A DNA stretch of 64,000 bases. Source: an uncultured Gammaproteobacteria bacterium. Lineage in GTDB: Bacteria; Patescibacteriota; Patescibacteriia; Magasanikbacterales; UBA922. Below are positions 3,620 to 54,100 of this stretch, piece after piece (within the stretch, counting starts at the first letter, position 1; the number at the start of each line of letters is the position of its first letter). The stretch is taken from positions 166,546 through 230,545 of the forward strand of contig CAYMVY010000001.1 of NCBI GenBank assembly GCA_964394405.1, given 5' to 3'. Position numbers and translations under genes: made by a program. The notes below the pieces were generated by a model that was not told the origin of the DNA, made no database searches, and saw only the letters and a list, made by a program, of their open reading frames with translations.

Positions 3620-3679
3620 GGGGGTTCGAGGGTGACAACTGTCTGTCCCGACTCAGTCGGGATTGGTTACAAAAAGTAC
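3620..3679. repeat. 60-nt structured element (gggggttcgagggtgacaactgtc…cccgactcagtcgggattggttacaaaaagtac), copy 1
   Basis: Contains hairpin cccgac-tca-gtcggg; second copy at 18018-18137 shares both halves and carries a 55-nt internal insertion. Confidence 0.55.
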
Positions 3680-10281: not shown

Positions 10282-10959
10282 ATGGAACACAATATCAGGC
10301 ATTTGGCATTAATTGTAGATGGAAATCGCACCTGGGCAACCCAAAAAGGTTTGCCCAAATTTTTGGGACACACAGAGGGTGTAAAAATGCTCAAACGGAT
10401 AATCAAAGCTGCGTCTAAAAAAAATATTCCCTACCTCACCGCATGGTTGCTTTCAACTGAAAACTTACAAAGAGCAGAAGACGAACTCAAACATTTATTT
10501 TCATTATTCATCACATTTAACGACAAAGAATTAACGGAAAACAATGTACAACTGAGAGCAATAGGCGACCTTTCTCGCGTACCCGAAAACGTTCAAAATA
10601 AAGTGAAAGAATTACAAGAAAAAACAAAAAATAATACAGGCATGGTTCTAAATCTCGCAATTGCGTATGGGGGTCGAGATGAAATCGTTCGTGCTACAAA
10701 AAAAATTATCGAAGCGGGGCTACAACCTGGAGAAATAACCGAAAATACATTTGAAAAATTTCTCGATACCGCAGGAATACCCGAAGTCGATCTAGTCATT
10801 CGTACTGGCGGCCATCAACGCCTCTCAGGATATTTCCCTTGGCAATGCACGTATGCTGAGCTTTATTTCACAGACACTCGATTTCCTGATTTTTCACCAG
10901 AAGAACTAGATAAAGCAATTGAATGGTTTAGTCAGCAAGAAAGAAAGAGAGGGAAATAA
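10282..10959 (+). CDS. uppS: undecaprenyl-diphosphate synthase (cis-isoprenyl transferase)
   Basis: HLALIVDGNRTWA, AYGGRDEI, IRTGG…RLSGYFPWQCTYAELYF motifs; start moved to Met at 10282. Confidence 0.85.
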   Translation: MEHNIRHLALIVDGNRTWATQKGLPKFLGHTEGVKMLKRIIKAASKKNIPYLTAWLLSTENLQRAEDELKHLFSLFITFNDKELTENNVQLRAIGDLSRVPENVQNKVKELQEKTKNNTGMVLNLAIAYGGRDEIVRATKKIIEAGLQPGEITENTFEKFLDTAGIPEVDLVIRTGGHQRLSGYFPWQCTYAELYFTDTRFPDFSPEELDKAIEWFSQQERKRGK

Positions 10960-10978
10960 TTAACACAAACCTTTTACA

Positions 10979-11039
10979 CGTCATTCCCGCGAAAGCGGGA
11001 ATCTAGAGTTTTTAAGATCCCCGTTTTCACGGGGATGAC
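10979..11039. repeat. two-hairpin element (cgtcat-ttcccgcGAAAgcgggaa-…-atccccgttttcacggggat-gac), copy 1
   Basis: Second copy at 42864-42930; first stem differs by a compensatory pair (cgc/gcg vs cac/gtg) with GAAA loop preserved. Confidence 0.6.
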
Positions 11040-11042
11040 AAC

Positions 11043-11068
11043 CAAAAAACCGGCAGGTTGCCGGTTTA
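11043..11068 (+). terminator. terminator-like hairpin aaccggcaggttgccggtt downstream of uppS
   Basis: 8-bp stem, A/T flanks. Confidence 0.5.
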
Positions 11069-11173
11069 ATCATTGGTTACTGACTTTTAGCAATATCAAT
11101 GTTTGTCATTGTACAGTGCTTCTCCACATATCAATTTCTCTACAGTTATCAGCATCTTTAGATTTTAAACACT

Positions 11174-15733: not shown

Positions 15734-15798
15734 TACAAACTCCCCACTTTTGACTTTTTACTTTCGACTTTTAACTTTTTTGTGTACACTATCCTCAT

Positions 15799-18017: not shown

Positions 18018-18137
18018 GGGGGGGGGGTTCGGGGATGGAAACTGTCCGAGCTACGAATGTAGAATCACTAACAATACTTAAGAAGGCGAGTTTTTTGACC
18101 CCCGTCCCGACTCAGTCGGGATTGGTTACAAAAAGTA
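18018..18137. repeat. structured element copy 2 (same family as 3620-3679) with 55-nt insertion at 18047-18101
   Basis: Shares ggggttcgRgg…aactgtc and cgtcccgactcagtcgggattggttacaaaaagtac with copy 1. Confidence 0.55.
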
Positions 18138-18159
18138 CAAAATATCTCCACTAAAACAA

Positions 18160-19821: not shown

Positions 19822-19942
19822 AATAGTCGGGAGAATATAAGAAAAAAGGCTCTATGTCAATCTAGCATGTGTCCCACTTGAGCTTCTTGACTTTTATTAG
19901 CATCATTGTTATACTTGTCTTCGTTATTTTGTCCCAACTATG

Positions 19943-19995
19943 GGCCAGTAACCTGGCTGGTTAGAGCGATCCGATGTACATCGGATAGGTAGGGT
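19943..19995 (+). pseudogene. truncated tRNA-Ala-like copy (acceptor 5' half, D region, anticodon arm, variable region; T-arm replaced by GIY-YIG start)
   Basis: gggccagta-acctggctggttagagcg-atccgatgtacatcggat-aggtagggt parallels the tRNA-Ala at 20256 (gggccagta-gctcacctggtagagcg-…-aggtaggggg). Confidence 0.45.
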
Positions 19996-19998
19996 TTT

Positions 19999-20265
19999 AT
20001 GAAAGGATATCTCTACATTCTCCAGAGTAACAAAAACGGTCGATATTATATTGGAAGCACGAATAATCCAGATCGACGTTTAGAAGAACACAACGGAAAA
20101 CTCGTCACAACCACACAATATCTTGTGCCACTTAAAATGGTATTTTGCAAAGAATACCAAGAACTAAGCGAGGCACGAAATATTGAACGAAAATTAAAAA
20201 GACAAAAAAGTAGGATCTTGATAGAAAAGATAATAAAAGATCAAAATATATTCATGGGCCAGTAG
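19999..20265 (+). CDS. GIY-YIG domain protein (UPF0213-like), copy 1
   Basis: GYLYILQS…GRYYIGSTNNPDRRLEEHN = GIY-YIG motif; stop codon overlaps first 10 nt of tRNA-Ala. Confidence 0.7.
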   Translation: MKGYLYILQSNKNGRYYIGSTNNPDRRLEEHNGKLVTTTQYLVPLKMVFCKEYQELSEARNIERKLKRQKSRILIEKIIKDQNIFMGQ

Positions 20266-20331
20266 CTCACCTGGTAGAGCGCCTCGTTTGCACCGAGGAG
20301 GTAGGGGGTTCGAGTCCTCTCTGGTCCACCA
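20256..20331 (+). tRNA. tRNA-Ala(UGC) with encoded CCA
   Basis: Cloverleaf with G3:U70 identity pair, anticodon loop uuUGCac, T-loop GGTTCGAGT, 3' CCA. Confidence 0.85.
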
Positions 20332-20394
20332 GGCTTCATCCTGATTACATCAGGATTTCGCCCGGCAAGCCGTTTACATAACTTTGGAGGGAGT

Positions 20395-20679
20395 ATGTAC
20401 TACGTTTACATTTTATTGTGTAGTGATCGTACTTACTACACCGGGTATACAACTAACCTTAAGCGGAGGTTACAGGAACATGAACTGGGTCAAAATGAAA
20501 GTACGAAATACAAAAGACCGGTTCGACTCGTCTTTTTTTGTTCTTTTTCAAACATGGACAAAGCAATCCAGTTTGAAAAATATTTAAAAACAAATTCAGG
20601 ACGGGCATTTAGAAACAAACATCTGATAAATAATTCGTTATCCGAGCCTGCTCGGCGTAGCGAAGCGAAGCCGAGGTAG
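20395..20679 (+). CDS. GIY-YIG domain protein (UPF0213-like), copy 2
   Basis: MYYVYILLCSDRTYYTGYTTNLKRRLQEHE; C-terminal 10 nt overlap the tRNA-Phe 5' end. Confidence 0.65.
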   Translation: MYYVYILLCSDRTYYTGYTTNLKRRLQEHELGQNESTKYKRPVRLVFFCSFSNMDKAIQFEKYLKTNSGRAFRNKHLINNSLSEPARRSEAKPR

Positions 20680-20741
20680 CTCAGTGGTAGAGCAGAGGCC
20701 TGAAGAGCCTTGTGTCGCCAGTTCGATCCTGGCTCTCGGCA
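20670..20741 (+). tRNA. tRNA-Phe(GAA)
   Basis: gccgagg acceptor, anticodon stem gaggc/gcctt with loop cuGAAga, T-arm gccag-ttcgatc-ctggc; close to bacterial tRNA-Phe consensus. Confidence 0.8.
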
Positions 20742-20759
20742 CGGGTAAAATCGAACAAT

Positions 20760-24031: not shown

Positions 24032-24089
24032 AAAAAATACTATAGTGCATCAAAGTATACCACATAACACATTTTACGTACTACGTATC

Positions 24090-24218
24090 AAAAAAATCTC
24101 AAAACTTAAAATTCAAAACTAAAAACTATAACTCAAATTTTAAAACTTTATCTTGAGCTTACCGAAAGATTTTAATTTTTAGTTCCAGTTTTGCGTTTTG
24201 AGATTTGAGTTTTAACAT
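24090..24218. repeat. long imperfect inverted low-complexity element built from caaaact units (…ctcaaaacttaaaattcaaaactaaaaact… / …agttccagttttgcgttttgagatttgagtttt)
   Basis: A-rich arm switches to complementary T-rich arm around a central region; same architecture recurs at 47076, 53214 and 53985 with different unit sequences. Confidence 0.5.
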
Positions 24219-27200
24219 TTATGTAAACTTATTCTTCAATATCTCCTTAATTCTTCCCCCATACAATTTAACTCCCAAAATAACCGCAAGTCCTGCAAGC
24301 AAAAGCACGACAGCGCGTATGATTTCAATTCGAGAATAACCTTCCCCTTCTTCTACCATTTCTACCATCGCAACTTTCTCCCCTTTTATCACCCCCTCGA
24401 TCCGCACATCTTTCATATCACGCGGAGAAACCATATACCCACTCTTGGTTTCCTGCACGATTCCAGTTACCGAAACACGTGCCCCTTCAGTAAAAAGTGA
24501 TTTATCAATTCCAGATCCTCCACGAATATAGAGTCGCACTTCATCAGTACCATCATCAAGATATACATATGAACCTTTGATGCCCGTCACCTCCCCTGTG
24601 ATCTCGGTTAGCCAGCCCTCATACGGCTCATCAATATCAGCAATAGCAAGCTCAAGCGGAGTGTAGGTCTCGCTCTTTCCCACAATTGATATATCAGTAG
24701 CCGCATCAATTTTCAATCGCGCTTCCCCAGAAGTTTCAGCTAGTTCGCCCGTGATTTTTACCTTATCTCCACGAGCAAGTGTAGGAAAATCTTTTTTATA
24801 TGAATAAATCTGCAATCCCGGAGATCCTGCAATATAAAAATACTGCGAACTCATGACACCAGGCTCTACAACCACCGTTCCAGTTAAAGATACAACCGTT
24901 CCCACATCAAAATTCCGCACGTCAGTAAGTGTCGTCTCTACTTTTGGTTTTGTAGCAATTGTCTTCACCTTCGACTTTACAACCTCGACTGTTGGAACCA
25001 GTGGATTCTTCTCCCCTGGAGTAAGTTCCGCAGTCCAGAACCACATATCACCTCCATACGTATATGACTTCCCTTCTTTTGAAGAAGCATATTCTATTTC
25101 GTACAAAACCAATCCATCAGAATCGATAATCCATACACTCTCTCCAGAATTAGTAAGCGAAAGTTTTGTGTCTTTTGAATAAAACGCTCGATATTCCCCT
25201 TTTTTCAGAATTGTTTCTTCTGGAAATAGATATGGCTTTGAACCACCCTCACCATCATCCAGTGATAATCCTGCCAAATAAATATCTCGATCATGCGGAT
25301 TAAAAAGTTCAATGTATTCATTCTTCGTATCGCTTCCTAGAGGATTAGGTAATATTTCCACAATTACCGGAATAAACTCCGGAGAATAACTATGTTCAAT
25401 AATCCCAAAACCAACTTCTTCTACTGACGACGAAGAAGTTGAAATCGTAGTGGTAGTAGACACGCGGGAAATTATTTTTTCTGTTTTAAAAAAAATATTT
25501 TCACCACCCTTGGTGATCGTCTCAGTAATGATAAAATCTTCTTCATAATTCCCCGAATCTTTGCCTGATATACGCATGAGAGAAGTTCCCTTCGGAGGAG
25601 CTTTAGCAGCCACATCTTCACCATTCCATTCTCCATATACCACTCGATCAATTTCTGTACCGCTCGGATCAGTAAGGGTAAGCAAATCACCAGAATTATT
25701 CAGACTACCTTTGGGTTTTTCTATGACAAAAAATTGTCTCGAAGCAATCGTGCCAGTTAATGTAGTTTTTGCAAGACTTCCGTCCTGAAAAATCCAACCA
25801 TCAAGAGAAATAGACGAACTTGTTATATTTAACAATTCCACAAACTCAGTCTGGTTATCAGAAGGAATTGAGACAAATTCATTAATCAGAATACTCCCTT
25901 CGGCAAATGCTGGCTTAGGTGTTTCAAGAGTTACCACAGATGAATTATTCCCGCCTGTCTGAATTGGTGAAGAAACTACTACTTTTGGAGTAATATTATT
26001 TGGACTTCCGGGTGTCGGAGTAATTGTATAGGCAAAATCTGTGTGATCAATAGTAGTATCTTCCCCATCACTCACCCGAGCGACCGAATGTCCTTTACTG
26101 GGTATTGGAGCCGCACTATTGTCTTCCCCATAAACTACTGCATCAATAATTTCTTGTCCTGCATTTTTTAGTACAATCGAATCGCCCGACTGATTCAGCT
26201 TACTTGAAGATAAATAAACTAACCGGAATCCTGATGTTTCAATCGTTCCAGTAACTGTGGCAATTTTACCCACACCATCATAGAGTGTACATCCATCAAG
26301 CAACACATCTTCTTCTCCTGCATTATACAATTCAATCCACTCTTTCTCTCCGGAATTCGGATCACTCAAAAATTCATTAATAACAATTTTTAGTGTACTA
26401 CTCGGCGCTTCGTCACCACCCCCCTCCTCTTCATCTTCTGGTTCAGGAATTACAGATGGCAGAATTTCAATGGTATGGAAAACCGTACTCGAAGCCTGCT
26501 CTGTATCATACACAGTGAGTATTACCTGTTTAGTCCCCGTAGTTGCAAATGCATATACGACACTCACACCCTCATACATCTCATTTTCAATTATCCATAC
26601 ATACCGCTCAATACCACTCTCGAGATCAGATGAACCAGAAGCATCAAAAAATATTGATTCATCTACCAGTACACTCTGTGGTCCATCAATACGGGCACTC
26701 GGGGCATGATTTACAATCTCTTCCTCAGAATCAGTCCACCAATAATTTTGCGTGCCTGGAGTCGAGGAGACTGGATGTTCTTTCCATTGGAAAATATCAT
26801 CAGACTCGCCTATGTCACTAATCCGCTCAAGTGAATTATTGTTTACACCAGCGTATACAAATTTTTCTACAAAATCATCACTACCACTTCCCTTCTTAAT
26901 CCCAATTTCTTCTCCAGTTTTAGTAAGCGTAGTCCACACACTATCGAATACAGTTGAAGTAGTGTCTGGATGATCTGCAAAAAATACCCTATCGTTTTGT
27001 GCAATAACTGCATAAGTACCTGGAAGAAGAATGGTCGAAGTAATCGTACTGCTCGGACTTATCGTGAGTCCATGATTCGCCCCTCCCTCCCAAAATTTCC
27101 ATCCAGTTAAATCTACAGCCTCAGCGCTTTTATTATAAATCTCAATCCACTGATGATCACTCGAGGCACATCCGCTCGGACATATTTCAGTGATGATAAT

Positions 27201-27296: not shown

Positions 27297-27365
27297 ACCC
27301 CTCCGTATGTTAGAAATAAATTGTTGATAAATTCAATATACCACACTCAGAAAGCAACGTAAACT

Positions 27366-27420
27366 CCCTCCCCTCTTAGGGGAGGGCCAGAGTGGGGTTA
27401 AACCTATAAAACAAAAAAAC
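27366..27420. repeat. G-rich REP-like hairpin element copy 2 (ccctcccct-ctt-aggggaggg + agtggggtt + aaaacaaaaaaa)
   Basis: Same stem as copy 1 at 647; loop is the reverse complement (ctt vs aag) while flanks keep orientation. Confidence 0.6.
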
Positions 27421-35455: not shown

Positions 35456-38407
35456 TTGTCAAGGGTAACGGGCCAAAAAACCCGTATTTTAGCCAAATTT
35501 TGTCTGTCTATGCCTATTCCAAGTCTCAAGACCCGCTCATACGGATATCTGACGGGTAGAGGTGGTGCCGCCCCAAACACACGGGACACTGGGAGACCCC
35601 CCCGACCGAGAAATCCCAAACATAAGAGATTCTTTAGTAAAAAAAACATTTTTCTTGCTCTTTTTACATTTGCGGTGATGGGATTCTTGGGAGGTACTAT
35701 TCTAATTGCATGGGCAAGCAAAGATTTACCTGATCCAAACCGACTTACCGACCGAGAAGTAGCAGAAAGCACCAAAATATACGATCGTACAGGCACCCAC
35801 CTACTCTATGAAATTTTTGCTGATGAAAAACGCACACTGGTTAGATTAGAAGATATCCCAAAGGATCTGGTTAATGGACTCATAGCAACTGAAGATAAAA
35901 CCTTCTACGAACACAAAGGAATCAGACCACTCAGTATTCTGAAAGCCCAAATTCAGGGTATTTTCAGTACAGAAAGAACCCGTGGTGCCTCGACAATCAC
36001 CCAACAGCTAGTTAAAAACGCGATCCTCACCGATGAACGTTCGTATGTACGAAAAATTAAAGAAGCTATCCTCTCAATAAGACTTGAACAAAAATATACC
36101 AAAGACCAGATTCTCCAAATTTACTTTAATGAAATCCCGTATGGTTCAACAAATTATGGGGTACAGTCTGCTGCACAAAGCTATTTTGGCAAAGATGTAA
36201 AAGACCTGACACTCGCTGAGTCTGCTGCGCTTGCAGGTATGCCCCAATCCCCATCAAGATTTCTAAACAACATCGAAGCTTTTACAGAACGTCGAAATTT
36301 GGTTTTACATGAAATGTATAAAGAGGGTCATATCACTGAAGAACAAAAAAATGAGGCGCAAGCAGAGGAGCTTGTCATAAAACCAATAGCCTATAATATC
36401 AAAGCGCCCCACTTTGTACTGTATGTAAAACAACTCCTCGTTGATAAATACGGCGAGGCGCTCACCGAACGTGGGGGATTAAGCGTCATCACAACACTTG
36501 ATTGGGATAAGCAACAAATCGCAGAAGAAGTGATCGGTGGAGCTGCTGGCCAAAAAACACTCGCAGATGCAGATGCAGATAATGCAGCGCTCGTGGCTTT
36601 AGATCCAAAAACTGGACAAGTGCTCGCAATGGTTGGATCACGCGACTTTTACAATGAAGAAATCAGTGGTCAATTCAATGTTGCAACCCAGGGCAAACGT
36701 CAGCCAGGATCTTCATTTAAACCTATTATTTATGCTGCTGCATTTGAGCGCGGATATACACCTGATACCATTCTATACGATGTACTCACCAATTTCAGCA
36801 CCACCGAAGGAAAGCCGTACATCCCAACAAATTATACACTCAAAGAATACGGACCACTCACCATGCGCCAAGCACTCGCTGGCTCACTGAATATTCCCGC
36901 AGTCAAAACAATGTATTTACTCGACCCAAAGCGAGGAATTGATTTTGCCAAGCGACTTGGCTACACCACCCTGGATAATCGAGAAAATTGCGGTCTCGCT
37001 CTTGTTCTTGGGTGCGGAGAAGTAACCGTACTAGAACACACAAATGCATATGCGACATTTGCAAATAAGGGTATCCGCTATGAACCCGTGAGTATACTTA
37101 AAGTGGAGGACAGTACTGGAAAAATACTTGAAGAGTGGAAACGAGAAAAAGGAATCGAGGCAATAAAGCCAGAACTCGCCGCAACCATTACCAATGTCCT
37201 CAGTGATGATGGAGCTCGATCTTTTATATTCGGAAGTGGTGGAGTACTCACGCTCCCAGGACGACCTGTTGCTGCAAAAACTGGAACGACCAATAATTAT
37301 ATTGATGCCTGGACAGTCGGCTATACACCTAGCTTAGCAACGGGAGTCTGGACAGGGAACACTTCAAACACTCCGATGAAGTCTGGTTCAAGTGGAAGCA
37401 TGCTTGCAGCAAAACTTTGGAATCTATTTATGCGTGATGCGGTAAAAGGCATGCCCGTGGAGCAATTCCCACCTGCACCACCAAACACCGCTGAGAAGGC
37501 TGTTTTACGCGGCTCAAGCGGTGGTGGAGTAACACTCAAAGTTAACAAAATAACCGGTAAACTGGTATCAAGTTCAACACCTCCAGATCTTATTGAAGAG
37601 CGAACGTACATGCAACCACACGAAATTCTTCAGTACGTGGACAAAAATAATCCGCGAGGACCAATTCCTGAACATCCTGAGAATGATCCTCAATATTACG
37701 CATGGGAAAAAGGAATCCAAGAGTGGATTATACGGAAACAAGAATCAGACCCTACGTGGGTTCCAAATTTTGGAGAGCCTCCTACAGAGTATGATGATGC
37801 GTATTCAATTGAATTAATTCCAACACTAGATGTTTCCTATCCACAGCAAAACTCAACACTTACCTCTCGTTTTATCACCACAAACATCTCTGTGTCTGCT
37901 CCAAGAGGAGTAAGTGAGGTACTATACAAAATTGATGGAACATTAATCGAAACCAAGCGTTCACAACCATTCAACCTCTCGTATAATGCTGAAACATTAG
38001 ATTCAGGAGAGCACACACTTACCATCATAGTAATGGATGATATTGGAAACCGCATAGAAAAAAACATTCCTTTCTCACTCGATGTTCCCCCTCTCCCTCC
38101 AGGAGTACGTTTCAAAGAACGATCGTACACAACACCAAAAAATAATTTCCCTCTGGGAATCCTACTCTCATACCGGAGATTAGAGGAACTAGCAAAAGTA
38201 TCGATTTTCTTTCAACCATCAATGGGTGGTGAAAAAAAACTCATAGCTTCAATCACTGATTTCGACAATGCAACATACTTTAATAACCTACTCTCGATTA
38301 TCTGGTATGATGCGCCAAGTACAGGAAATTATCTCCTGAGCGCCGAAGTAGAATTACGGTCTGGATCTATTAATACACTCGACCAAATCACAATTGAAGT
38401 GAAATAG
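35456..38407 (+). CDS. class A penicillin-binding protein (PBP1A: GT51 transglycosylase + transpeptidase) with about 230-aa C-terminal extension
   Basis: GT51 motifs EDKTFYEHKGI, RGASTITQQL; TPase SSFKP, SLN, KTGT. Confidence 0.85.
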   Translation: MSRVTGQKTRILAKFCLSMPIPSLKTRSYGYLTGRGGAAPNTRDTGRPPRPRNPKHKRFFSKKNIFLALFTFAVMGFLGGTILIAWASKDLPDPNRLTDREVAESTKIYDRTGTHLLYEIFADEKRTLVRLEDIPKDLVNGLIATEDKTFYEHKGIRPLSILKAQIQGIFSTERTRGASTITQQLVKNAILTDERSYVRKIKEAILSIRLEQKYTKDQILQIYFNEIPYGSTNYGVQSAAQSYFGKDVKDLTLAESAALAGMPQSPSRFLNNIEAFTERRNLVLHEMYKEGHITEEQKNEAQAEELVIKPIAYNIKAPHFVLYVKQLLVDKYGEALTERGGLSVITTLDWDKQQIAEEVIGGAAGQKTLADADADNAALVALDPKTGQVLAMVGSRDFYNEEISGQFNVATQGKRQPGSSFKPIIYAAAFERGYTPDTILYDVLTNFSTTEGKPYIPTNYTLKEYGPLTMRQALAGSLNIPAVKTMYLLDPKRGIDFAKRLGYTTLDNRENCGLALVLGCGEVTVLEHTNAYATFANKGIRYEPVSILKVEDSTGKILEEWKREKGIEAIKPELAATITNVLSDDGARSFIFGSGGVLTLPGRPVAAKTGTTNNYIDAWTVGYTPSLATGVWTGNTSNTPMKSGSSGSMLAAKLWNLFMRDAVKGMPVEQFPPAPPNTAEKAVLRGSSGGGVTLKVNKITGKLVSSSTPPDLIEERTYMQPHEILQYVDKNNPRGPIPEHPENDPQYYAWEKGIQEWIIRKQESDPTWVPNFGEPPTEYDDAYSIELIPTLDVSYPQQNSTLTSRFITTNISVSAPRGVSEVLYKIDGTLIETKRSQPFNLSYNAETLDSGEHTLTIIVMDDIGNRIEKNIPFSLDVPPLPPGVRFKERSYTTPKNNFPLGILLSYRRLEELAKVSIFFQPSMGGEKKLIASITDFDNATYFNNLLSIIWYDAPSTGNYLLSAEVELRSGSINTLDQITIEVK

Positions 38408-38409
38408 AA

Positions 38410-38440
38410 AAAAATCCCTCCGAGCTGGAGGGATTTTTTT
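38410..38440. terminator. bidirectional terminator (atccctccgagctggagggat + T7)
   Basis: 8-bp stem; between PBP1A and dnaN ends. Confidence 0.75.
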
Positions 38441-39566
38441 ACTGTCTGATCGGCATCACAATATACTTGAAAGTTTCATCTCCATCTACCGTAAACAAAC
38501 ACGGAGAGTCAGGAGAATTGATATGCATCTGTGCTTCCTCTTTTTCGATCTGCTGTAGACCATCCAATACATACCGGTGATTGAGTAGTACGGTCATTTT
38601 TTCCCCGACCACCTCGCCCTCCACGTATGACGAATGTTCACCCGTTTGTGCACTTACCGAGGTTACACCGATTTGTTTTTTCTCAGGATCTAATTCAAAA
38701 GAAATCGAATTAACTCCAGCAATAGTAAATAAACTCGCTGCTTTTATTTTATTACTAATCTCTGAAACAGAAAAAGTCGCTGTGTTTTTGAAAGTAGTGG
38801 GTATAATCTGTGTATAATCTGGATAGCGTCCTTCAATAAGTCGACTAACCATTTCAAATTTATCATACCGAATTGCAATTTGATTTTGACTCACGGTCAC
38901 TCGTACGTTTTCCTCCCCCTCATGTTGTCGTCCGAGTTGTATGAGACGTGCCATTTCATAAGCCACTCTCCCAGGCACAATACAGGTTACCTCAGCATCT
39001 TCGCCTTGTGCGATAGGAACCCGCGCTTCAGAAAGTCGGTACGAGTCAGTTGCTGCCATTAGCAAACCTTCGTAACGCTCGCTTTTGAATCTACAAAAAA
39101 TACCAGAAAACTCAGGACGTATTTCATTTTTTGCACAGGAAATTACCACTTTCCCAATCTGATCTTTGAATGTTTGAGCGTGTATCAAGTAGGTGTGTCC
39201 TTCCTCAATCGCAGGAATTACTGGGTACTCTTCTGCAGGGAATCCTTTTATTTTTGTCTGAGATCCGGAAGAGTGGATAACGAGCTCGTTTGACTCAAGT
39301 GTGAGCTCCACCTGATCATTCGTGAGAAGTCGCACGTATTCAGTCAGCGTACGAGCAGGGACAGTAAAAGTTCCTGGTTCATCCACCTTTGCTCGTATGT
39401 GTGTTTTGACTGAGACTTCAAGATTGGTAGCACTTATCTCTACTCCAGACTCATGTGCACGTATAAGCACATTCTGTAGTATAGGGAGATTTACATGTTT
39501 ACTTGCAAATGCATTTACAATCTCTAGACTATATAATAAATTTTCACGTGTGGATGTTAGTTTCAT
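38439..39566 (-). CDS. dnaN: DNA polymerase III beta sliding clamp
   Basis: 375 aa, three-domain clamp; N-terminus MKLTSTRENLLYSLEIV typical. Confidence 0.9.
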   Translation of the reverse strand: MKLTSTRENLLYSLEIVNAFASKHVNLPILQNVLIRAHESGVEISATNLEVSVKTHIRAKVDEPGTFTVPARTLTEYVRLLTNDQVELTLESNELVIHSSGSQTKIKGFPAEEYPVIPAIEEGHTYLIHAQTFKDQIGKVVISCAKNEIRPEFSGIFCRFKSERYEGLLMAATDSYRLSEARVPIAQGEDAEVTCIVPGRVAYEMARLIQLGRQHEGEENVRVTVSQNQIAIRYDKFEMVSRLIEGRYPDYTQIIPTTFKNTATFSVSEISNKIKAASLFTIAGVNSISFELDPEKKQIGVTSVSAQTGEHSSYVEGEVVGEKMTVLLNHRYVLDGLQQIEKEEAQMHINSPDSPCLFTVDGDETFKYIVMPIRQ

Positions 39567-39813
39567 ATGTATTTCTCTTTTTATATTATAATCTAGTAGA
39601 TAATAATAGAGGCTGTGAATGGAGGGGATAAATCGTTTTTATTGCTAACTGTAGATATTTTTTTGATTTTATTGTGTGCACAAGTCAGGGATACTTTTTG
39701 AACAGAGGGTGAATAGGTTTTGGTATGTGTGTGGGGTGTGTGCAAAACTTTTAGTTAGTACCAGTTTATTAACCCACTTAAATACAGGTATTGGGCTAAG
39801 TTATGCACAGAAA

Positions 39814-41202
39814 TTAAATTTTATTTGAGTATAAACGTTGTTTGATAAGTTCAATATCCTGCTTTAATTTAAGATCATTATCAACTTCTTTTACAATCTT
39901 TGAGTGTGCGTGCATAGCAGTAGTGTGATCACGTCCACCAAGCTCTTCTCCAATACTTGGGTAGGAAAGCTTGAGCTCTTCTCTCATAAGATACATAATA
40001 ATCTGTCGAGGGAACGCAAAGCGCTTCTCTCTGCTTTTGCCCACAATATCTTCCATTTTAATATCATAAAATTTTATAATCTCCTCAATCAGGTCTTTAG
40101 GAGTAAGCGAGCGACGCATATTCTGTTCTTGAAAGCTTGAGAGAATGTGTCGGATCGATTCTTCTGTCGGGGTCGCATTTTTGAGCTCATGAAAAGCAAT
40201 AATCTTGTTCAAAGCGCCCTCGAGCTCACGAATATTGCTCTGGATACTCACTGCAATGAGGTTCTGAATATCAGGGGAAATAGGAAATTGGCGTTCTGCA
40301 GCCTTTTTTTGGATGATGGCCATGCGAGTTTCCAAATCAGGAGCCGAAATATCAGCAATCATCCCCCACTCAAACCTGCTGCGAAGACGATCTTCGAGAG
40401 CAGGAATAGCTTTTGGAGGTCGGTCACTCGTCATTACCACCTGCTTTCCCTGCTGATGGAGCTCATTGAAGGTGTGGAAGAATTCTTCCTGGGTCTGTTC
40501 TTTACCCCCGATGAATTGAATATCATCAATAAGTAGTAAATCAACATTGCGATAACGATCCTTAAATTCTTTTGCACGACCTTCTTTGACTGAGGAGACA
40601 AACTCATTGGTAAACTTTTCAGAACTTACGTACAAGATTTTTACATTTGGGTCAGCCGCAAGCATGGTGTGGCCAATCGCCTGGATAAGGTGTGTTTTGC
40701 CAAGACCGACGCCTCCATAGATAAAGAGAGGGTTATACGCATCTCCAGGTCGAGAAGCTACAGCCTGAGCCGCAGCATGTGCCAATTCATTACCTTTTCC
40801 GACCACAAAAGTCTCAAAAACGTATTTGGAATTAAGACCGAATTGTTGAACTAGAAGCGCTTTCTTTGGTAAGGGGGCAATAGACGGGTGGATAATAGGA
40901 GCTCTCTGAGCATCAGAAGTATTGGGAGTACACTCCTGTTCTTTGATATTCCGGACATTATCAACCACATAATCAGTTTTTTTGACTGGTTTTCCGGTTA
41001 CACGCTCCAATATTTTTACGATGGTTCCGTGGTATTTTTTTTCAAGCCAGCTTTTGGTAAATGCATTGGGTACACAGACCACCACCTGACCATTCTCATA
41101 GCTAGCAATTCCAGTATTTTTGAACCAGGTTGTGAAGTTGGCTTTTGAAAGAGTGAGTTCAAATTCAGCCAAAACTGCCTGCCAGATTTCGTAATTAGTC
41201 AT
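39814..41202 (-). CDS. dnaA: chromosomal replication initiator
   Basis: AAA+ Walker A GGVGLGKTHL, DnaA signature, C-terminal DNA-binding HTH. Confidence 0.9.
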   Translation of the reverse strand: MTNYEIWQAVLAEFELTLSKANFTTWFKNTGIASYENGQVVVCVPNAFTKSWLEKKYHGTIVKILERVTGKPVKKTDYVVDNVRNIKEQECTPNTSDAQRAPIIHPSIAPLPKKALLVQQFGLNSKYVFETFVVGKGNELAHAAAQAVASRPGDAYNPLFIYGGVGLGKTHLIQAIGHTMLAADPNVKILYVSSEKFTNEFVSSVKEGRAKEFKDRYRNVDLLLIDDIQFIGGKEQTQEEFFHTFNELHQQGKQVVMTSDRPPKAIPALEDRLRSRFEWGMIADISAPDLETRMAIIQKKAAERQFPISPDIQNLIAVSIQSNIRELEGALNKIIAFHELKNATPTEESIRHILSSFQEQNMRRSLTPKDLIEEIIKFYDIKMEDIVGKSREKRFAFPRQIIMYLMREELKLSYPSIGEELGGRDHTTAMHAHSKIVKEVDNDLKLKQDIELIKQRLYSNKI

Positions 41203-41282
41203 AGTTTGTGTTTATGAGGGGAATTGTAACACAGTTTATAAATCCAAAAAATGCTCTAAATTAAGCGAAAAGTGTATATTAT

Positions 41283-41310
41283 GTGGATTACCTGTGGATG
41301 GTGTGGATAA
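41283..41310. promoter_or_regulatory. three tandem DnaA boxes upstream of dnaA (tgtggatta, tgtggatgg, tgtggataa)
   Basis: Perfect and 1-2-mismatch reverse-complement TTATCCACA boxes read directly; candidate oriC / dnaA autoregulation site. Confidence 0.55.
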
Positions 41311-41455
41311 TACATAGAAAACAAGCATACGCGAAAACAAAATAGTTGACAATACATACTTTTTCATGTTTACTATCACCCGTCTCTTGCGAACACTGCA
41401 CGCGCAGTTATGTAGGCGACGCAACCACCGTCAACAGCTTCAGGAGGAATTCCGC

Positions 41456-41746
41456 ATGATGGATCTGAGTATCGCGCTCAAGGGTCGTGCTCACAAGAGC
41501 AAGAAGCCGAAGAAGCAGGTCGTCAAGGGCATGCTCGAGGTCATCGAGACCAATGCCAGGGGGCGTGGCGGTAGGCCGCGCTGCCAGGTGGTCACGGCCC
41601 GGAACACCTCGGCCAACCTCATGGACGTCACCCTCACGGGAGACGGCAGCCTGCTGATGACGGCCGTGCTCAAGCGGGGCGAGCAGCGCTCGTTCAGCGT
41701 GCCCCCGGGCACCGTCGCGAAGAAGATCGACATCATCGCGTTCTAA
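41456..41746 (+). CDS. small basic protein encoded by a GC-rich island in the dnaA-rpmH interval, hypothetical
   Basis: 96 aa from ATGATG with strong SD caggagg 9 nt upstream; about 62% GC; followed by an 11-bp-stem terminator. Confidence 0.45.
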   Translation: MMDLSIALKGRAHKSKKPKKQVVKGMLEVIETNARGRGGRPRCQVVTARNTSANLMDVTLTGDGSLLMTAVLKRGEQRSFSVPPGTVAKKIDIIAF

Positions 41747-41761
41747 CGCGCGTACGCTAGA

Positions 41762-41806
41762 GTACCGTCTCGCACCATCCCACACGGGCTCTGGTGCGAG
41801 ACTTTC
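41762..41806 (+). terminator. terminator hairpin gtctcgcacca…tggtgcgagac + tttcaaatt
   Basis: 11-bp perfect stem. Confidence 0.6.
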
Positions 41807-41833
41807 AAATTCACTAAAATTAGAGATTTTTTC

Positions 41834-41862
41834 TTGACAAAACACAAAAAATAGTGTATAGT
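41834..41862 (+). promoter_or_regulatory. sigma-70 promoter TTGACA-17-TGTATAGT for rpmH
   Basis: Consensus -35, 17-nt spacer, extended -10, 36 nt upstream of rpmH ATG. Confidence 0.5.
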
Positions 41863-41897
41863 ATCTATATTATATAACTTCTTAAGGAGCAATCTGT

Positions 41898-42074
41898 ATG
41901 CCAAAACGCAAGTATCAACCAAAAAAACGAAAACGAGCAAAAACCCATGGGTTTTTGAAAAAAATGAGAACAAAAAATGGTCGCGATGTATTGAAACGTC
42001 GTCGTGATAAGGGACGAAAGAAACTTACCGTAAGTAGTGAACGAAAAGGTAAACGAACACGAAAGACAAGATAA
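41898..42074 (+). CDS. rpmH: 50S ribosomal protein L34 (with short basic C-terminal extension); not in ORF track (<60 aa)
   Basis: [45 protein letters not shown] matches L34 consensus; SD aaggag upstream. Confidence 0.85.
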
Positions 42075-42084
42075 TTTTTTCATC

Positions 42085-42133
42085 AACAAAATAACCCCGC
42101 CCACTTCGACTTTGCTCAGGGCGGGGTTATTGT
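42085..42133 (+). terminator. terminator/attenuator hairpin aaccccgccc…gggcggggtt + ATTGTTT between rpmH and rnpA
   Basis: 10-bp GC stem. Confidence 0.6.
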
Positions 42134-42165
42134 TTATACTGTGTGTACATAGCTTATCACGTTCT

Positions 42166-42543
42166 ATGCTTCCCCAGGAAAATCGTCTCAAACGTATGAA
42201 AGATTTTGAAATCCTTTTTTCCGAGGGTAGATTTGTGTCAGGCAATCTGCTCAATGCAAAAGTGTGGAAAATAGAACCGGCCAAGTATCCAAAACGTGGA
42301 TACAGTGTCGATGATTTAAAGATTGGATTTGTCGCAAGTGTGAAGCATGAGAAGAAGGCTGTTGGGCGCAACCGTGCCAAGCGGCAGATGAGAGAAGTGG
42401 TACGATTACTTTTGAAAGATGCAAAAATCAAACACGGATATATGATAGCGTTTCTTTCCACTCCAAAAGTTTTTGGTGCTGAGTATGGTGAGATTGCAAA
42501 GGATATTGAATCAATTCTCAGGAAAGCGCGGTTACTTACCTAG
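42166..42543 (+). CDS. rnpA: RNase P protein component
   Basis: Start moved to [18 protein letters not shown] (RnpA N-terminus); basic RNR-like motif KRQMREVVR. Confidence 0.8.
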
Positions 42544-42568
42544 TGTCATTCTCAAACTAAATAACGAT

Positions 42569-42829
42569 ATGCGTTTTTTTCGCTTCCTAATTAATATTCC
42601 CAAAAACATCCTTCTTTTGTTAATTCGTTTGTATCAAAAAACTCTTTCTCCAGACCATGGTCCCATGAAAACAAAATTTCCTTATGGATATTGCAAATTC
42701 TACCCCACGTGCAGTGAATATGGATATCAGGCAATCAAAAAATATGGCGTAATTCGAGGCGTTCCCAAAACAATCTGGCGGATTATACGATGTAATCCGT
42801 GGTCGAAGGGTGGGATAGACAAACCATAA
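42569..42829 (+). CDS. yidD: membrane protein insertion efficiency factor YidD
   Basis: [15 protein letters not shown]…[19 protein letters not shown]…RIIRCNPW is the YidD signature; start moved to Met at 42569. Confidence 0.8.
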
Positions 42830-42831
42830 AA

Positions 42832-42862
42832 ATAAAACCGCCATACGGCGGATTTTTTTATA
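42832..42862 (+). terminator. terminator (aaccgccatacggcggatt + T7)
   Basis: 7-bp stem plus T-run. Confidence 0.7.
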
Positions 42863-42863
42863 T

Positions 42864-42930
42864 CGTCATTCCCACGAAAGTGGGAATCTATAATTACAAA
42901 TAAAAAGATCCTCATTTTCACGGGGATGAC
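42864..42930. repeat. two-hairpin element copy 2 (cgtcat-ttcccacGAAAgtgggaa-…-atcctcattttcacggggat-gacg)
   Basis: Same family as 10979-11039, with compensatory stem changes. Confidence 0.6.
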
Positions 42931-42933
42931 GCA

Positions 42934-44007
42934 TTAAGCTATGTGGAAATAGCAAACATCTCCATCTTTCACTTCATAATCTTTTCCTACCAATTGCATC
43001 TTTCCTTTTTCTTTCACCCCTGGCCAGCCACCCAGCGCTACAAAATCTGCAACACTCGCAACATCAGCTTTCACATATCCTTTGACAAAATCAGTATGGA
43101 TTACACCGGCAGCTTCAGGTCCTAGTGTCCCACGAGTTACGGTCCATGCGCGAGTTTCTTGTTCTCCGGAAGTAAAATAGGTAATGAGATTGAGTAATTT
43201 GTATCCAGCTACAATCAATCGGTCAAGCCCAGTCTCTTTCATTCCCAAATCTTCCATAAACATTTTCGCATCCTCAGAAGAAAGTTCTGCAATTTCTGAT
43301 TCTATCTTTGCACTGATTTCAATATATGGAGTGGTACCAAAAATTGGGGAGAAATCTGCCTTTCCGATCATGTCTTCTTTTACATTTACTACATACATCA
43401 TTGGTTTCATGGTAAGTAAATGCAAATCGCGCACGATAAGTTTTTCTTCTTCATTGAATTCCAACTCTCGAGTTGCTTTTCCAGCTTCGAGTTGCGCATT
43501 GAGTTTCTCTAGTACTGCAATTTCGATTTCTTTTCCTTTTGCAGCCGCACCTTTTGCATCACGTTTTGTTTTGTCTAATCGTTTTGAGACAGTTGCGAGG
43601 TCTGCGAGTGCAAGTTCAAGATTGATTACATCGCTATCATCTTTCGGGTCCACTTTTCCTGCCACATGAATAATATTTCCATCTTCAAATGCACGAACCA
43701 CTTGTACAATCGCATCAGCTTCACGAATGTGTGTGAGAAATTTATTTCCCAATCCTTCTCCTTCTGAAGCACCTTTTACAATTCCCGCAATGTCAACGAA
43801 TTGGATCGCAGTCGGAATGATTTTTCCAGATTTTGAAGTAGTGGCCAGTGGTGCGAGTCGTGCGTCTGGAACCTCAACAACACCAACATTGGGTTCAATG
43901 GTACAAAAAGGGTAGTTTGCAGCCTCAGCCAGCTTACTTTTGGTGAGTGCATTGAAGAGTGTTGATTTTCCTACATTAGGGAGTCCGACAATTCCGATAG
44001 ATAACAT
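42934..44007 (-). CDS. ychF: ribosome-binding ATPase YchF (Obg-family GTPase)
   Basis: [19 protein letters not shown]1 motif, TGS C-terminal domain. Confidence 0.9.
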
Positions 44008-44148
44008 AGCAACAAGTTAGTTTTGTACTGCGGAGTGTAACAGAAGAATGATAAAAAATCAACCGTTAAAATAAAAAAGAAAGAGGGGTGGTCTTTCAAA
44101 AGTTGACGTGGAAGGGGGTCTCTGCGTGCGCAGGGACCCCCTTCTTCC

Positions 44149-44826
44149 TCATGCAGCCCCATCGTCATTTCCGCCTCGGTAGAGACGAAGATGTGGTGGA
44201 GGGGGCGATCGGGGGTTGTGTCGGGAATGATAACCTGTCCCATATTTGCCGCCATGAATGCAGCGTAGAGGTGCCCTATGTGGAGGTGGAATTTGAGCAG
44301 GTTGTGCTAGCGGCTGAGCAATCGGGGCATCTGCATTCGACACCTCACTCATTACAGACCCGAACAATTCTTCACGCAAGATAGAGAGCACTTCAAGTCT
44401 GAAGAAGAAGTGTCCGTTTTCATGTGAAGTCGATCGGATTGCCCACTCCAGTTCGTTGCGGACTCTCGGTGAAGAGAGGATCGCGTCAACGGGGTATTTT
44501 CCGATAGTTGTTCGGATGGGGGCAATGAGGTCAAGGGTTGATCGGAAGTTTACCCTTTGAAACTCAGTCCAGTCGACCGCGATTCGCACGTGGACACGAG
44601 CACCATCTCGAGACGATACGCAGTAGGTCTGCTTATCCGAGTTGTAGAAGTGGAAGTCGTGCCTCTCGAAGTGCTGCCAGGGCCATCGGAGGTGGATTCC
44701 AGGGGCAAGTCCGCGGAAATGATTGTGAGTCTTTCGGACCGCAATCGTACCTGCAGGAACCATGATGATCAGACGTGCGGCCAGAAAGAGGACGCACAGA
44801 CACAGTACAATGATACCGTACAACAT
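44149..44826 (-). CDS. SPFH/band-7-like domain protein with Pro-rich tail, GC-rich island gene
   Basis: N-terminal TM then VPAGTIAVRKTHNHFRGLAPGIHLRWPW… resembling SPFH; SD aagga upstream of Met at 44826; perfect 11-bp terminator hairpin at 44106-44144. Confidence 0.4.
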   Translation of the reverse strand: MLYGIIVLCLCVLFLAARLIIMVPAGTIAVRKTHNHFRGLAPGIHLRWPWQHFERHDFHFYNSDKQTYCVSSRDGARVHVRIAVDWTEFQRVNFRSTLDLIAPIRTTIGKYPVDAILSSPRVRNELEWAIRSTSHENGHFFFRLEVLSILREELFGSVMSEVSNADAPIAQPLAQPAQIPPPHRAPLRCIHGGKYGTGYHSRHNPRSPPPPHLRLYRGGNDDGAA

Positions 44827-45230
44827 GTGCAATCCTTGGTAAGGGTGGGGAGAATGAACTGTGTACAACATAGCATAAAGAATAAAAAAAATAAAGGCAC
44901 AACATAAAATATTGTACGACGTTAAAAATTATTAATATTAAGCTATTTTATTACTGTTTTATAAAAAATGTTAGAAAATGGGTAAGATCTTCTCTCTATT
45001 ATTTTAATAAATACTATCCCCGCTCATTTGATTCTGATTTCTAATACAGAAAACAAACACGGACTGTAAATCCGTGTTTAGTAAAGAGTCTGTGTTTGTT
45101 TTTCCCGACAGGAACCAATCTACATCCTTCGATGGACAGATAGAACCTTATGTATTGTGCCCCCCCCACCGCGAATCGAACGCGGATCTAGACGTGATTG
45201 AGTGTCTTGTTCCCCGCCTGCCATCGCCTG

Positions 45231-45302
45231 TACCCTCGACAGGAATCGAACCTGTATCTAGACGTTAGGAGTGTCTTGTTCTATCCATTGAACTACGAGA
45301 GC
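45231..45302 (-). tRNA. tRNA-Arg(CCU), argW-like
   Basis: Reverse complement gctctcg-ta-gttcaatggatagaac-a-agaca-cuCCUaa-cgtct-agata-caggttcgattcctg-tcgagggt-a parallels E. coli argW; two G·U pairs in acceptor and A·C at 31-39 lower confidence. Confidence 0.55.
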
Positions 45303-45351
45303 ATAGGCCATGGCGGGCAGGTAACCATTGAACTATGGGAGCTTGTTAATT

Positions 45352-46119
45352 TTAAGTCGTTTCATGTGAAACATCTCTCTCTGTATTAATTAAAGTATAC
45401 ATTAGTGTGTACATTCCGCTCACTGTAGCTTGATGAGTAATGATATCAGCGTATAATTCTCCATATTTATTACTAATAGTGTAGATCGTATCCTCTGTTA
45501 CGATCGTTTCAATATTTTTGTATACATCTGTATGTACTTCTGGAGCCTGTATCCACTGGAACTCAGGAGCTTTAGAAAGTTGTAGCAAAGATTGTCTATT
45601 TGCAGGAGTATCAAATACACAACAAGTACTGCTAGAGGCTGTAGTGATTTTAATGTCACAAAAATCTTTTAAAGTTTCCTGATCAATAGCACTTGGATTA
45701 AAGAGAGATAAAAGAGAAACTTTATTTGTATACAGTGTTCTATACAAATCCAAAATAGCTTCTTTTCCTACTCGATTTGAAAGAAATGGGTGCCCGAGCA
45801 TTGTATATGACGACTCAAGTTTTGGCAAGAGATTTTCCGCGTCATTTATGCGACTATTCCACAAGTTTTTTTGTCGTTCTGCATACTCAATTATTTTTCG
45901 CGGGTGTTTCACGTGGAACTCTGCGGGTTGTGAATTCTTTTTTTGTTCAATCAAATCTAATTCAATTAATCGATCAAGTGAGTGGTAGCCAAGGGTGCGG
46001 GTAATACCAGCTCGGTGGGTGATTGATGTCACAGTTCCTGATCCAAGTTCAAGAAGAGCAAGATAGGTCTTTGCTTCAGTTTCCGCTAATCCAATTTTTA
46101 TAAGCTCCTCAATCTGCAT
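45352..46119 (-). CDS. TrmB-family transcriptional regulator (N-terminal winged HTH)
   Basis: LAETEAKTYLALLELGSGTVTSITHRAGITRTLGYHSLDRLIELDLI matches TrmB HTH. Confidence 0.6.
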   Translation of the reverse strand: MQIEELIKIGLAETEAKTYLALLELGSGTVTSITHRAGITRTLGYHSLDRLIELDLIEQKKNSQPAEFHVKHPRKIIEYAERQKNLWNSRINDAENLLPKLESSYTMLGHPFLSNRVGKEAILDLYRTLYTNKVSLLSLFNPSAIDQETLKDFCDIKITTASSSTCCVFDTPANRQSLLQLSKAPEFQWIQAPEVHTDVYKNIETIVTEDTIYTISNKYGELYADIITHQATVSGMYTLMYTLINTERDVSHETT

Positions 46120-46765: not shown

Positions 46766-47075
46766 ACGCCTGAGCGCATCGCGCGCTCCTTCCAATGGCA
46801 CGGAAGTAAAGCCTGTACAAACTGCGGAGTTCTGCCAAAGAACTCCGCCCAAACCAAAAGTACATCACACACGTGGTGTCTTTTTGTTTTACCCCCCTCC
46901 TGTCCTCCCCCTTGTGAAGAGGGGGGAACCTACTTACGCAAGGATGACACAAAGTAATGCTTGTGTTACTATGAATAATACTATGGATGGATTTTTATCA
47001 ATTCTTATTCTTATCGTTGGTACAGTAGGAGCTGTGCTTATTGCTTTTTTCTTTGGTAAGATTGGGAAGAAATAA

Positions 47076-53213: not shown

Positions 53214-53330
53214 AAAGTAAAAGCGCAAAAGGCAAAAGAAAATACACGACAGTGAGTCCGTGTATTTTTTGTATTATGTATTTGCATTATCTTTTTACTT
53301 TTAACCTTTTACTTTTTATATGCTATAGTC
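53214..53330. repeat. inverted low-complexity element built from aaaagt units (gtaaaaagtaaaaagtaaaagcgcaaaaggcaaaag … ctttttacttttaaccttttacttttt)
   Basis: A-rich arm and complementary T-rich arm flank acacgacagtgagtccgtgt. Confidence 0.55.
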
Positions 53331-53984: not shown

Positions 53985-54100
53985 AAACTGAAAACTCAAA
54001 TGTCAAAACGAAAAACTACAACTCAAAATGCAAAACTAAACCTCGTATTAGGGTTTTTAGTTTTAAGTTTCGGTTTTTAGTTTTGAGCTTTACGTTTTGA
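53985..54100. repeat. inverted low-complexity element built from caaaact/aaaacg units between convergent genes
   Basis: aaactgaaaactcaaatgtcaaaacgaaaaactacaactcaaaatgcaaaactaaacc … ggtttttagttttaagtttcggtttttagttttgagctttacgttttgac. Confidence 0.55.

Follow-up and report, generated by a model that had tools for sequence, protein, structure and literature searches.

Among the described repeats closest to the element reported here are the CGTC-1 REPs (repetitive extragenic palindromes) of Di Nocera, De Gregorio and Rocco (2013). These carry a CGTC or TGTC tag, an 8-bp stem starting with AT, and a 4-nt loop, and occur mostly as head-to-head (HH) dimers with their tags outside (PMC3733652). CGTC-1 corresponds to dRS3 in Neisseria and to RPE-6 in Rickettsia conorii. 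The same authors found no dedicated transposase for CGTC repeats and argued that many REPs are transcribed (PMC3733652). Chenal et al. (2025) described the Neisseria Transformation Sequence (NTS), with the consensus CGTCATTCCCGCGMAVGCGGGAATCYRG and the wider name 'Ssn-related motif' (SRM). SsnA, a 94-aa single-domain GIY-YIG protein, bound the NTS as single-stranded DNA (ssDNA) only, not as RNA or duplex, and cut it a few nucleotides upstream; both the 5' GTC and the 3' C proved critical. Mobility of the repeat as a unit was only hypothesized (PMC11893778). Bertels and Rainey, for their part, gave ATTCCCGCGCAGGCGGGAATC as the seed of the Neisseria REPIN and linked it to a Group 2 RAYT (REP-associated tyrosine transposase, HUH/Y1 family).

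We analyzed a 64-kb stretch of DNA (the window) from an uncultivated Magasanikbacteria genome. Candidatus Magasanikbacteria is the name carried by cluster mates sharing at least 90% identity with the window proteins and by YchF homologs sharing 93%, and the gene content of the window (GatB, Lamin-tail-domain proteins, and a class II RNR) fits that clade. The window contains two copies of a two-hairpin repeat, and both are members of this known family of hairpin-forming DNA repeats, the CGTC-1 REP, which is the dRS3/NTS of Neisseria. The element itself is familiar to bacterial-repeat specialists and opens no new category. Its occurrence in Candidatus Magasanikbacteria and other Patescibacteria, nearly base for base as in Neisseria and adjoining canonical Ssn genes, appears to extend the known host range beyond the 2013 and 2025 surveys.

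Anatomy and genomic position of the doublets

Each copy consists of two 25-nt units, A and B, arranged as an inverted pair with tags pointing outward. The doublets are 61-67 bp long and both are intergenic, giving two HH dimers in 64 kb. The two sites comprise the following features.

10282..10959, plus strand: uppS (PF01255)
10979..11003, plus strand: copy 1 unit A; tag CGTC, 8-bp stem ATTCCCGC/GCGGGAAT, GAAA loop, 3' C
11004..11015, no strand assigned: copy 1 spacer, 12 nt, TAGAGTTTTTAA
11016..11040, minus strand: copy 1 unit B; TGTC-ATCCCCGT-GAAA-ACGGGGAT-C
11047..11067, minus strand: intrinsic terminator of the DUF2188 gene
42838..42851, no strand assigned: bidirectional yidD/ychF terminator
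42864..42888, plus strand: copy 2 unit A; compensated G:C to A:T change, stem ATTCCCAC/GTGGGAAT
42889..42906, no strand assigned: copy 2 spacer, 18 nt, TATAATTACAAATAAAAA
42907..42931, minus strand: copy 2 unit B; CGTC-ATCCCCGT-GAAA-ATGAGGAT-C, with two uncompensated changes, one G.T and one C.A
42934..44007, minus strand: ychF

The generic form of unit A is CGTC-ATTCCCGC-GAAA-GCGGGAAT-C on the plus strand, and that of unit B is YGTC-ATCCCCGT-GAAA-ACGGGGAT-C on the minus strand. The original prediction had placed two copies here and had described inverted ends and a GAAA-loop hairpin carrying a compensatory change. All of this was confirmed, with the copies at 10979-11039/40 and 42864-42930/31. 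The ends read CGTCAT...ATGAC(R), and the stem ATTCCCGC/GCGGGAAT of copy 1 is replaced by ATTCCCAC/GTGGGAAT in copy 2. The replacement is a true double change at stem pair 7, which is G:C in copy 1 unit A and A:T in copy 2 unit A. A second hairpin had also been proposed for both copies. It is intact in copy 1 only. In copy 2, where the sequence is ATCCTCAT...ACGGGGAT, two of the eight stem positions of unit B, a T.G and an A.C, are uncompensated and non-Watson-Crick. Nor is this hairpin a different motif. The second hairpin is a unit of the same kind on the opposite strand (GTCATCCCCGTGAAAACGGGGATC), and each copy is therefore an inverted pair.

The GTC tag and the 3' C are kept in all four units. 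Their 3' tails read CTA, CTT, CTA, and CTT, with the first C constant. The ends of the copy 1 spacer are complementary (ATCT...AGAT) and overlap both units. As DNA, copy 1 folded into two hairpins at -17.5 kcal/mol (z -5.3 against shuffles), while the fold of copy 2 was much poorer (-9.2 kcal/mol, z -2.7). Even when 8 mismatches were allowed, the window yielded four units in total.

Copy 1 starts 19 nt past the uppS stop codon and, seen from the other side, 3 nt beyond the T tract of the DUF2188-gene terminator. That terminator is kept in relatives with or without the element. Copy 2 lies between the yidD/ychF terminator and the ychF stop codon, ending 3 nt from the latter. The expectation that both copies sit just after gene terminators held for copy 2 (terminator at 42838-51), whereas copy 1 is bounded by the uppS stop codon on one side and, on the other, by the terminator of the opposite-strand gene. 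A terminator scan of the surroundings of both copies called neither unit a terminator, and the true terminators are separate neighboring hairpins. As no T tract follows the unit hairpins, we rejected their reading as intrinsic terminators. No IS or phage genes were seen adjoining either copy. GC skew flips sign near 44 kb, beside dnaN, dnaA, rpmH, rnpA, and yidD, and the segment at about 38400-46000, which contains copy 2, is probably the replication origin region.

Correspondence with described repeat families

To place the units among known repeats, we compared them with the published consensus sequences. Copy 1 unit A together with the next 3 nt (to 11006) matched the NTS consensus at 28 of 28 positions, and copy 2 unit A at 25 of 28. 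Searching the 64-kb window with this 28-nt consensus at up to 3 mismatches gave 2 matches against 0.00 expected, and the palindrome ATTCCC-N8-GGGAAT gave 3 against 0.21 expected. Chance palindromes, considered as a candidate explanation, were ruled out by these two counts. The published SRM expression, HGTCWYN(0-2)YYVSBRHN(0-5)WNVSBRGN(0-2)RNCYNB, matched the window once (copy 1 unit A) against 0.18 expected. Compared by hand, copy 1 unit B appears to be off at the last base alone, and copy 2 unit A is off through its A:T pair.

The palindrome, 5' GTC, and 3' C of the NTS/SRM (PMC11893778) are present in all four units. In patescibacterial loci (L179 and L170), canonical Ssn-like genes have the same units as neighbors. 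The window differs in having a CPR host of about 41% G+C and a low copy number without clusters, and in containing neither a canonical ssn gene nor an NTS-ssn-NTS arrangement. In addition, each A unit has as its partner a distinct B variant (ATCCCCGT/ACGGGGAT), 12-18 nt away. A protein-binding site had been one of the original suggestions, and it comes close, in that the unit is the published motif for ssDNA binding and cleavage by SsnA (PMC11893778); that the unit would be bound in the same way here is argued by analogy.

Agreement with CGTC-1 (PMC3733652) extends to tag, stem, loop, and dimer. The tag is CGTC in copy 1 unit A and in both units of copy 2, and TGTC in copy 1 unit B. The 8-bp stem begins A-T, T-A and closes on a 4-nt loop. 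As in CGTC-1, the units form HH dimers with outward tags; they are heterodimers, as in H. neapolitanus and C. taiwanensis, and are intergenic, downstream of convergent genes. Dispersal is seen in the two dimers of the window and in further units elsewhere in relatives. Two features depart from the 2013 description. The 3' tail is CTA or CTT here, unlike the consensus CCA, which is found in many doublets of other genomes, and Patescibacteria lie outside the 5 phyla of the 2013 list.

The NIMEs of Neisseria (dRS3-flanked RS repeats) likewise have inverted dRS3-type units around a short spacer, and the GCGAAAGC and ACGAAAGT variants both occur in Neisseria arrays. NIME spacers, however, are repeat modules of 50-150 bp in long arrays beside surface-protein genes, whereas here the doublets are isolated and their spacers measure 12-18 nt.

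Structural constraint, turnover, and distribution

The suggestion that selection acts on the hairpin had been drawn from the two window copies. We collected units within 5 substitutions of A or B from about 1.7 Mb of fetched loci and discarded those whose pairing was forced by the search pattern, leaving 83 distinct sequences. Across these, 96.4% of pair cells were standard pairs. Double-sided changes occupied 59 cells, compared with 10.1 +/- 2.5 in shuffles (0 of 500 reached the observed value), and slid stem registers were all far worse. Pair 7, which was free in the search patterns, was GC in 194 cases and AT in 68, with 13 for all others. The test is conservative, because a substitution-only search penalizes double changes twice. 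From the covariation in unforced units and the pair 7 counts, we conclude that the structure is selected in the family, a result that upholds the original suggestion well beyond the two window copies. Single-sided stem changes comprised 11 G.T and 16 A.C. As G.T was not the commoner of the two, no RNA-specific signature is present. Copies with uncompensated stem changes, named in advance as a sign of neutral decay that would refute selection on the structure, do exist (copy 2 unit B and the copy in relative L226), but pairing is nonetheless kept family-wide. The family is under structural constraint while single copies decay.

We then compared the two sites with their counterparts in related genomes. 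At the ychF site, relatives with 97, 94, 93, and 91% YchF identity keep the terminator and lack the element. The uppS site was more varied. It is filled in the window and in L226 (A then B'), the latter with uncompensated changes. In L193 the element is flipped (B then A'), and its spacer aligns in the flipped sense only. In L228 the site is empty, with 9 nt between stop codon and terminator, and in L224 the region is replaced. From the window to L193 the element retains 95% identity and is thus more conserved than the genes on either side, at 69-81%. UppS sequence identities suggest the tree ((window, L224), (L226, L228), L193), which would mean that the element was there ancestrally and was later lost in one case and flipped in another, or that it inserted more than once at a single spot. 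Single units also occur in relatives at places that are empty in the window (L218:7389 and L220:582). A metagenome scan with UppS returned only relatives of 44% identity or less, none of them with units.

As the doublet is present, absent, or flipped at orthologous sites, it behaves as a discrete, mobile-like unit. Filled, empty, and inverted orthologous sites are direct comparative evidence for the doublet moving as a unit. The proposal of a MITE-like element was close in these respects: the arms are inverted, the element is a REPIN-like REP doublet, and it is present, absent, or flipped. It fell short in two others, as no target-site duplication was visible between filled and empty uppS sites and no related IS was found. 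Two further observations concern one relative. The MAG containing L193 and L221 (GCA_964565405.1, CAZMEW01) is titled 'uncultured Gammaproteobacteria bacterium'. It is syntenic with the window and its YchF is 93% identical; this label is probably wrong, the clade being otherwise named Candidatus Magasanikbacteria, and we rejected it as evidence on the host because of the Magasanikbacteria names of homologs at 90% identity or more. Downstream of ychF in L221 (11085-11110), ATCATTTTTGTGAAAATGGTCAT resembles unit B with C to T changes. Judged by its sequence, it may be a decayed remnant at a site occupied in the window, or a chance resemblance.

These comparisons bear on whether the doublet is a passive landing pad or a relic without a current partner. 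It could be kept as a preferred target of IS110-type elements or filamentous phages, like Neisseria dRS3, or a duplex site for gyrase or nucleoid proteins, like E. coli REPs. Low copy number, the decay of copy 2 unit B and of the L226 copy, and the lack of a partner gene in the window are all compatible with such a relic, and REPs have been reported in the literature as IS targets and gyrase sites. We nevertheless consider this reading quite improbable. The uppS copy has stayed 95% identical where its flanking genes have diverged to 69-81%, the turnover seen among relatives whose YchF is 91-97% identical implies that it was recently active, and neither copy adjoins IS or phage genes.

Beyond close relatives, the unit and the doublet are widespread. 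The 24-mer of unit A, matched exactly at all positions but pair 7, was found in at least 120 IMG/VR stretches, many of which are Neisseria-type arrays with GTCATTCCCACGAAAGTGGGAATC ... GATTCCCGCCTGCGCGGGAATGAC bracketing repeat modules. Scanning for doublets (unit A followed after 10-40 nt by the right arm of unit B) identified the A+B arrangement in 77 genome stretches from more than 10 phyla. The hosts include Magasanikbacteria and other Patescibacteria, Omnitrophota, Nitrospinota, Planctomycetes, Ignavibacteria, Sericytochromatia, Elusimicrobiota, Gemmatimonadales, Rickettsia, Coxiellaceae, Sphingobium, Devosia, and others. The layout does not vary: YGTCAT-TCCCGCGAAAGCGGGA-ATC(CAG) ... (CTG)GAT-CCCCGTTTTCACGGGG-ATGACR, with spacer ends that are often complementary. 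In nearly all of 80 doublets, the base before GTCAT is T or C. By a crude count, gene contexts in other genomes were unidirectional, convergent, and divergent, and some doublets lay inside long ORFs.

This variety of contexts is relevant to a possible role as RNA. The doublet might act as a 3'-UTR stem-loop that shields the uppS and ychF mRNAs from 3' exonucleases or modulates termination, or it might be a small RNA gene, as had originally been suggested. Transcription is expected, since each copy has a stop codon on one side and a terminator on the other, and Di Nocera et al. favor transcription of many REPs (PMC3733652); the window copies would both be transcribed as 3' UTR, which leaves some room for an RNA-level role. 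As RNA, copy 1 folded at -35.3 kcal/mol (z -7.3 against shuffles), and the minimum-energy form was a single long hairpin made by pairing of A with B. Near copy 1, Rfam gave one weak match, to FtrB, an sRNA of Francisella, at 27 bits where the threshold is 66, and nothing else at E values up to 1. At the gathering threshold, the whole window yielded tRNAs only. Other evidence makes an RNA role a low-probability reading, and the small RNA is the part of the original prediction that we set aside. We found no promoter-like site and no Rfam family at threshold. At the corresponding sites, close relatives retain the genes and terminators but lack the element or have it inverted, and its orientation to flanking genes is not preserved; elsewhere its gene contexts vary and, by the crude count, include the interior of long ORFs. 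G.T is not favored over A.C among the single-sided stem changes. In Neisseria, SsnA binds the motif as ssDNA and not as RNA (PMC11893778). The FtrB match itself covers 10955-11073 on the minus strand (E 0.013) and spans doublet and terminator; FtrB may derive from a similar arrangement of repeat plus terminator.

The window also holds repeats of other kinds. A second hairpin family occurs at 645-680, 27363-27400, and 46884-46920, with CCCTCCCCT..AGGGGAGGG followed by GGGTGGGGTT. Its third site (46884-46920) reads CCCCCCTC..GAGGGGGG and ends in GGATGACA, and relatives carry a CGTC unit there instead. Similar G/C-rich palindromes adjoin NTS units in three unrelated loci (L018, L061, and L066). 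An exact 35-nt direct repeat, GTCCCGACTCAGTCGGGATTGGTTACAAAAAGTAC, with an internal hairpin (GTCCCGAC/GTCGGGA), is found at 3645-3679 and 18104-18138; both copies are intergenic and follow G-rich stretches. AT-rich intergenic tracts of short AAAAGT- or AAAACT-like units in both orientations lie at 2692-2731, 15747-15792, 24087-24219, 53187-53322, and 53991-54100. Similar AT-rich tracts occur in relatives downstream of ychF, the place taken by the doublet in the window.

Candidate partner enzymes and proposed mechanism

Two enzymes, RAYT and Ssn, have been proposed as partners of the same repeat, and we searched for both. Canonical Ssn-like genes were found beside A/B units in five loci (L039, L103, L170, L179, and L191), all of which had been chosen by the repeat alone. 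L170 belongs to a Magasanikbacteria MAG (RIFOXYD2_FULL_41_14), and its Ssn-like protein is annotated 'excinuclease ABC subunit C'. In the patescibacterial locus L179, the Ssn-like gene sits between 3 A/B units and an array of 8 tandem units. The tandem array (L179 6481-6780), directly beside the gene, has a period of 39-40 bp and comprises four type B CGTC units followed by four ATCCCCGC/GCGGGGAT variants.

The 64-kb window contains no canonical Ssn gene. Its only GIY-YIG genes are two divergent ones, 9 kb away, which we call g1 and g2.

19999..20265, plus strand: g1, encoding an 88-aa single-domain GIY-YIG protein; a possible partner nuclease, with an ambiguous PDB search
20395..20679, plus strand: g2, encoding a 94-aa single-domain GIY-YIG protein; more UPF0213-like (PDB 1zg2, 3e-11, in a database that holds no Ssn structure)

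Against the repeat-flanked Ssn-like proteins, g1 and g2 scored 16-41 bits, compared with 73-123 bits within the Ssn-like group. Among the best 120 of 1284 homologs of the Magasanikbacteria (L170) Ssn, none was on the 596,879-bp contig of the window. In the matches listed, most close homologs of the L170 Ssn are recorded on contigs of 0.5-3 kb only; such very short contigs would be expected if the gene is usually embedded in assembly-breaking repeats.

For RAYT, neither the window nor 210 repeat-bearing loci (about 1.9 Mb) contained a match in a single-sequence phmmer search, which may miss divergent RAYTs. The query has no Pfam match and scores 179 bits on the NCBIfam RAYT model. This result bears on a strict REPIN interpretation, in which the doublet is non-autonomous and copied by a single-copy RAYT, as Bertels and Rainey propose for the Neisseria REP. 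There is a good deal of likeness. Two inverted REPs lie less than 130 bp apart (spacers of 12 and 18 nt) and can fold into one long hairpin, the master sequence of the Neisseria REPIN is the same palindrome, and insertion/deletion polymorphism between related genomes appears as filled, empty, and flipped orthologous sites. Yet no RAYT was detected in these 1.9 Mb, against five Ssn-like genes in loci picked by the repeat, and Di Nocera et al. had found no dedicated transposase for CGTC repeats either (PMC3733652). Furthermore, the tag is CGTC here and GTAG for characterized RAYTs, the loop is GAAA rather than GCAG, and only two copies were seen. Copying by a RAYT is thus an unlikely account of the doublets, and in the sampled loci only Ssn-like genes co-occur with the repeat.

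Our data point instead, with reasonable though not full confidence, to HH heterodimers of CGTC-1 REPs that act as ssDNA hairpins recognized by an Ssn-type GIY-YIG nuclease, in the form of a low-copy and largely selfish passenger. Recognition of the Ssn type is the most likely one by analogy, given Neisseria biochemistry and the co-occurrence seen here. The functional form would be a hairpin in single-stranded DNA. A small single-domain nuclease of the Ssn family would bind it through the palindrome and the 3' C and, if it resembles Neisseria SsnA, would make its cut a few nucleotides 5' of the GTC tag. With the tags facing outward on opposite strands, both ends of the doublet could be cut by an enzyme of this kind, which would explain how the whole unit comes to be gained, lost, or flipped. 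The element would most likely be a low-copy, largely selfish passenger that settles beside terminators in 3' intergenic DNA, and its effect on mRNA 3' ends, if any, would be secondary. Several findings sit less comfortably with this account. The window has no canonical Ssn gene, and its two GIY-YIG genes score low against the Ssn-like group and are flanked by tRNA genes. It has 2 doublets in 64 kb, compared with more than 200 motifs in typical Ssn-bearing genomes, only one of its four units fits the published SRM expression, and no target-site duplication is visible. To our knowledge, transposition by an Ssn enzyme has never been shown.

A bolder form of the Ssn proposal is that the doublet is a non-autonomous element which an Ssn-type GIY-YIG nuclease excises, inserts, and inverts by cutting outside each outward GTC tag. 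We regard this as a tentative possibility, on balance doubtful, and we know of no element for which a GIY-YIG enzyme has been shown to serve as a REP 'transposase'. If it did so here, the near-identical units in more than 10 phyla, including reduced CPR genomes, would reflect horizontal spread of the Ssn and repeat pair, and the filled, empty, and flipped uppS sites would be its footprints.

The surroundings of g1 and g2 merit separate description. Both genes lie inside a tRNA cluster (19941-20742) without flanking CGTC repeats. GIY-YIG homologs were not found in the relatives' loci, of which only L226 reaches well past the neighboring tRNA-synthetase gene. The terminal TAG of each gene falls inside the very start of the tRNA gene that follows (tRNA-Ala at 20256 and tRNA-Phe at 20670). 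Upstream of g1, the segment 19941-19995 looks like a partial 5' copy of tRNA-Ala (GGGCCAGTA...AGAGCG...AGGTAGGG). The pair may be a tRNA-targeted mobile cassette.
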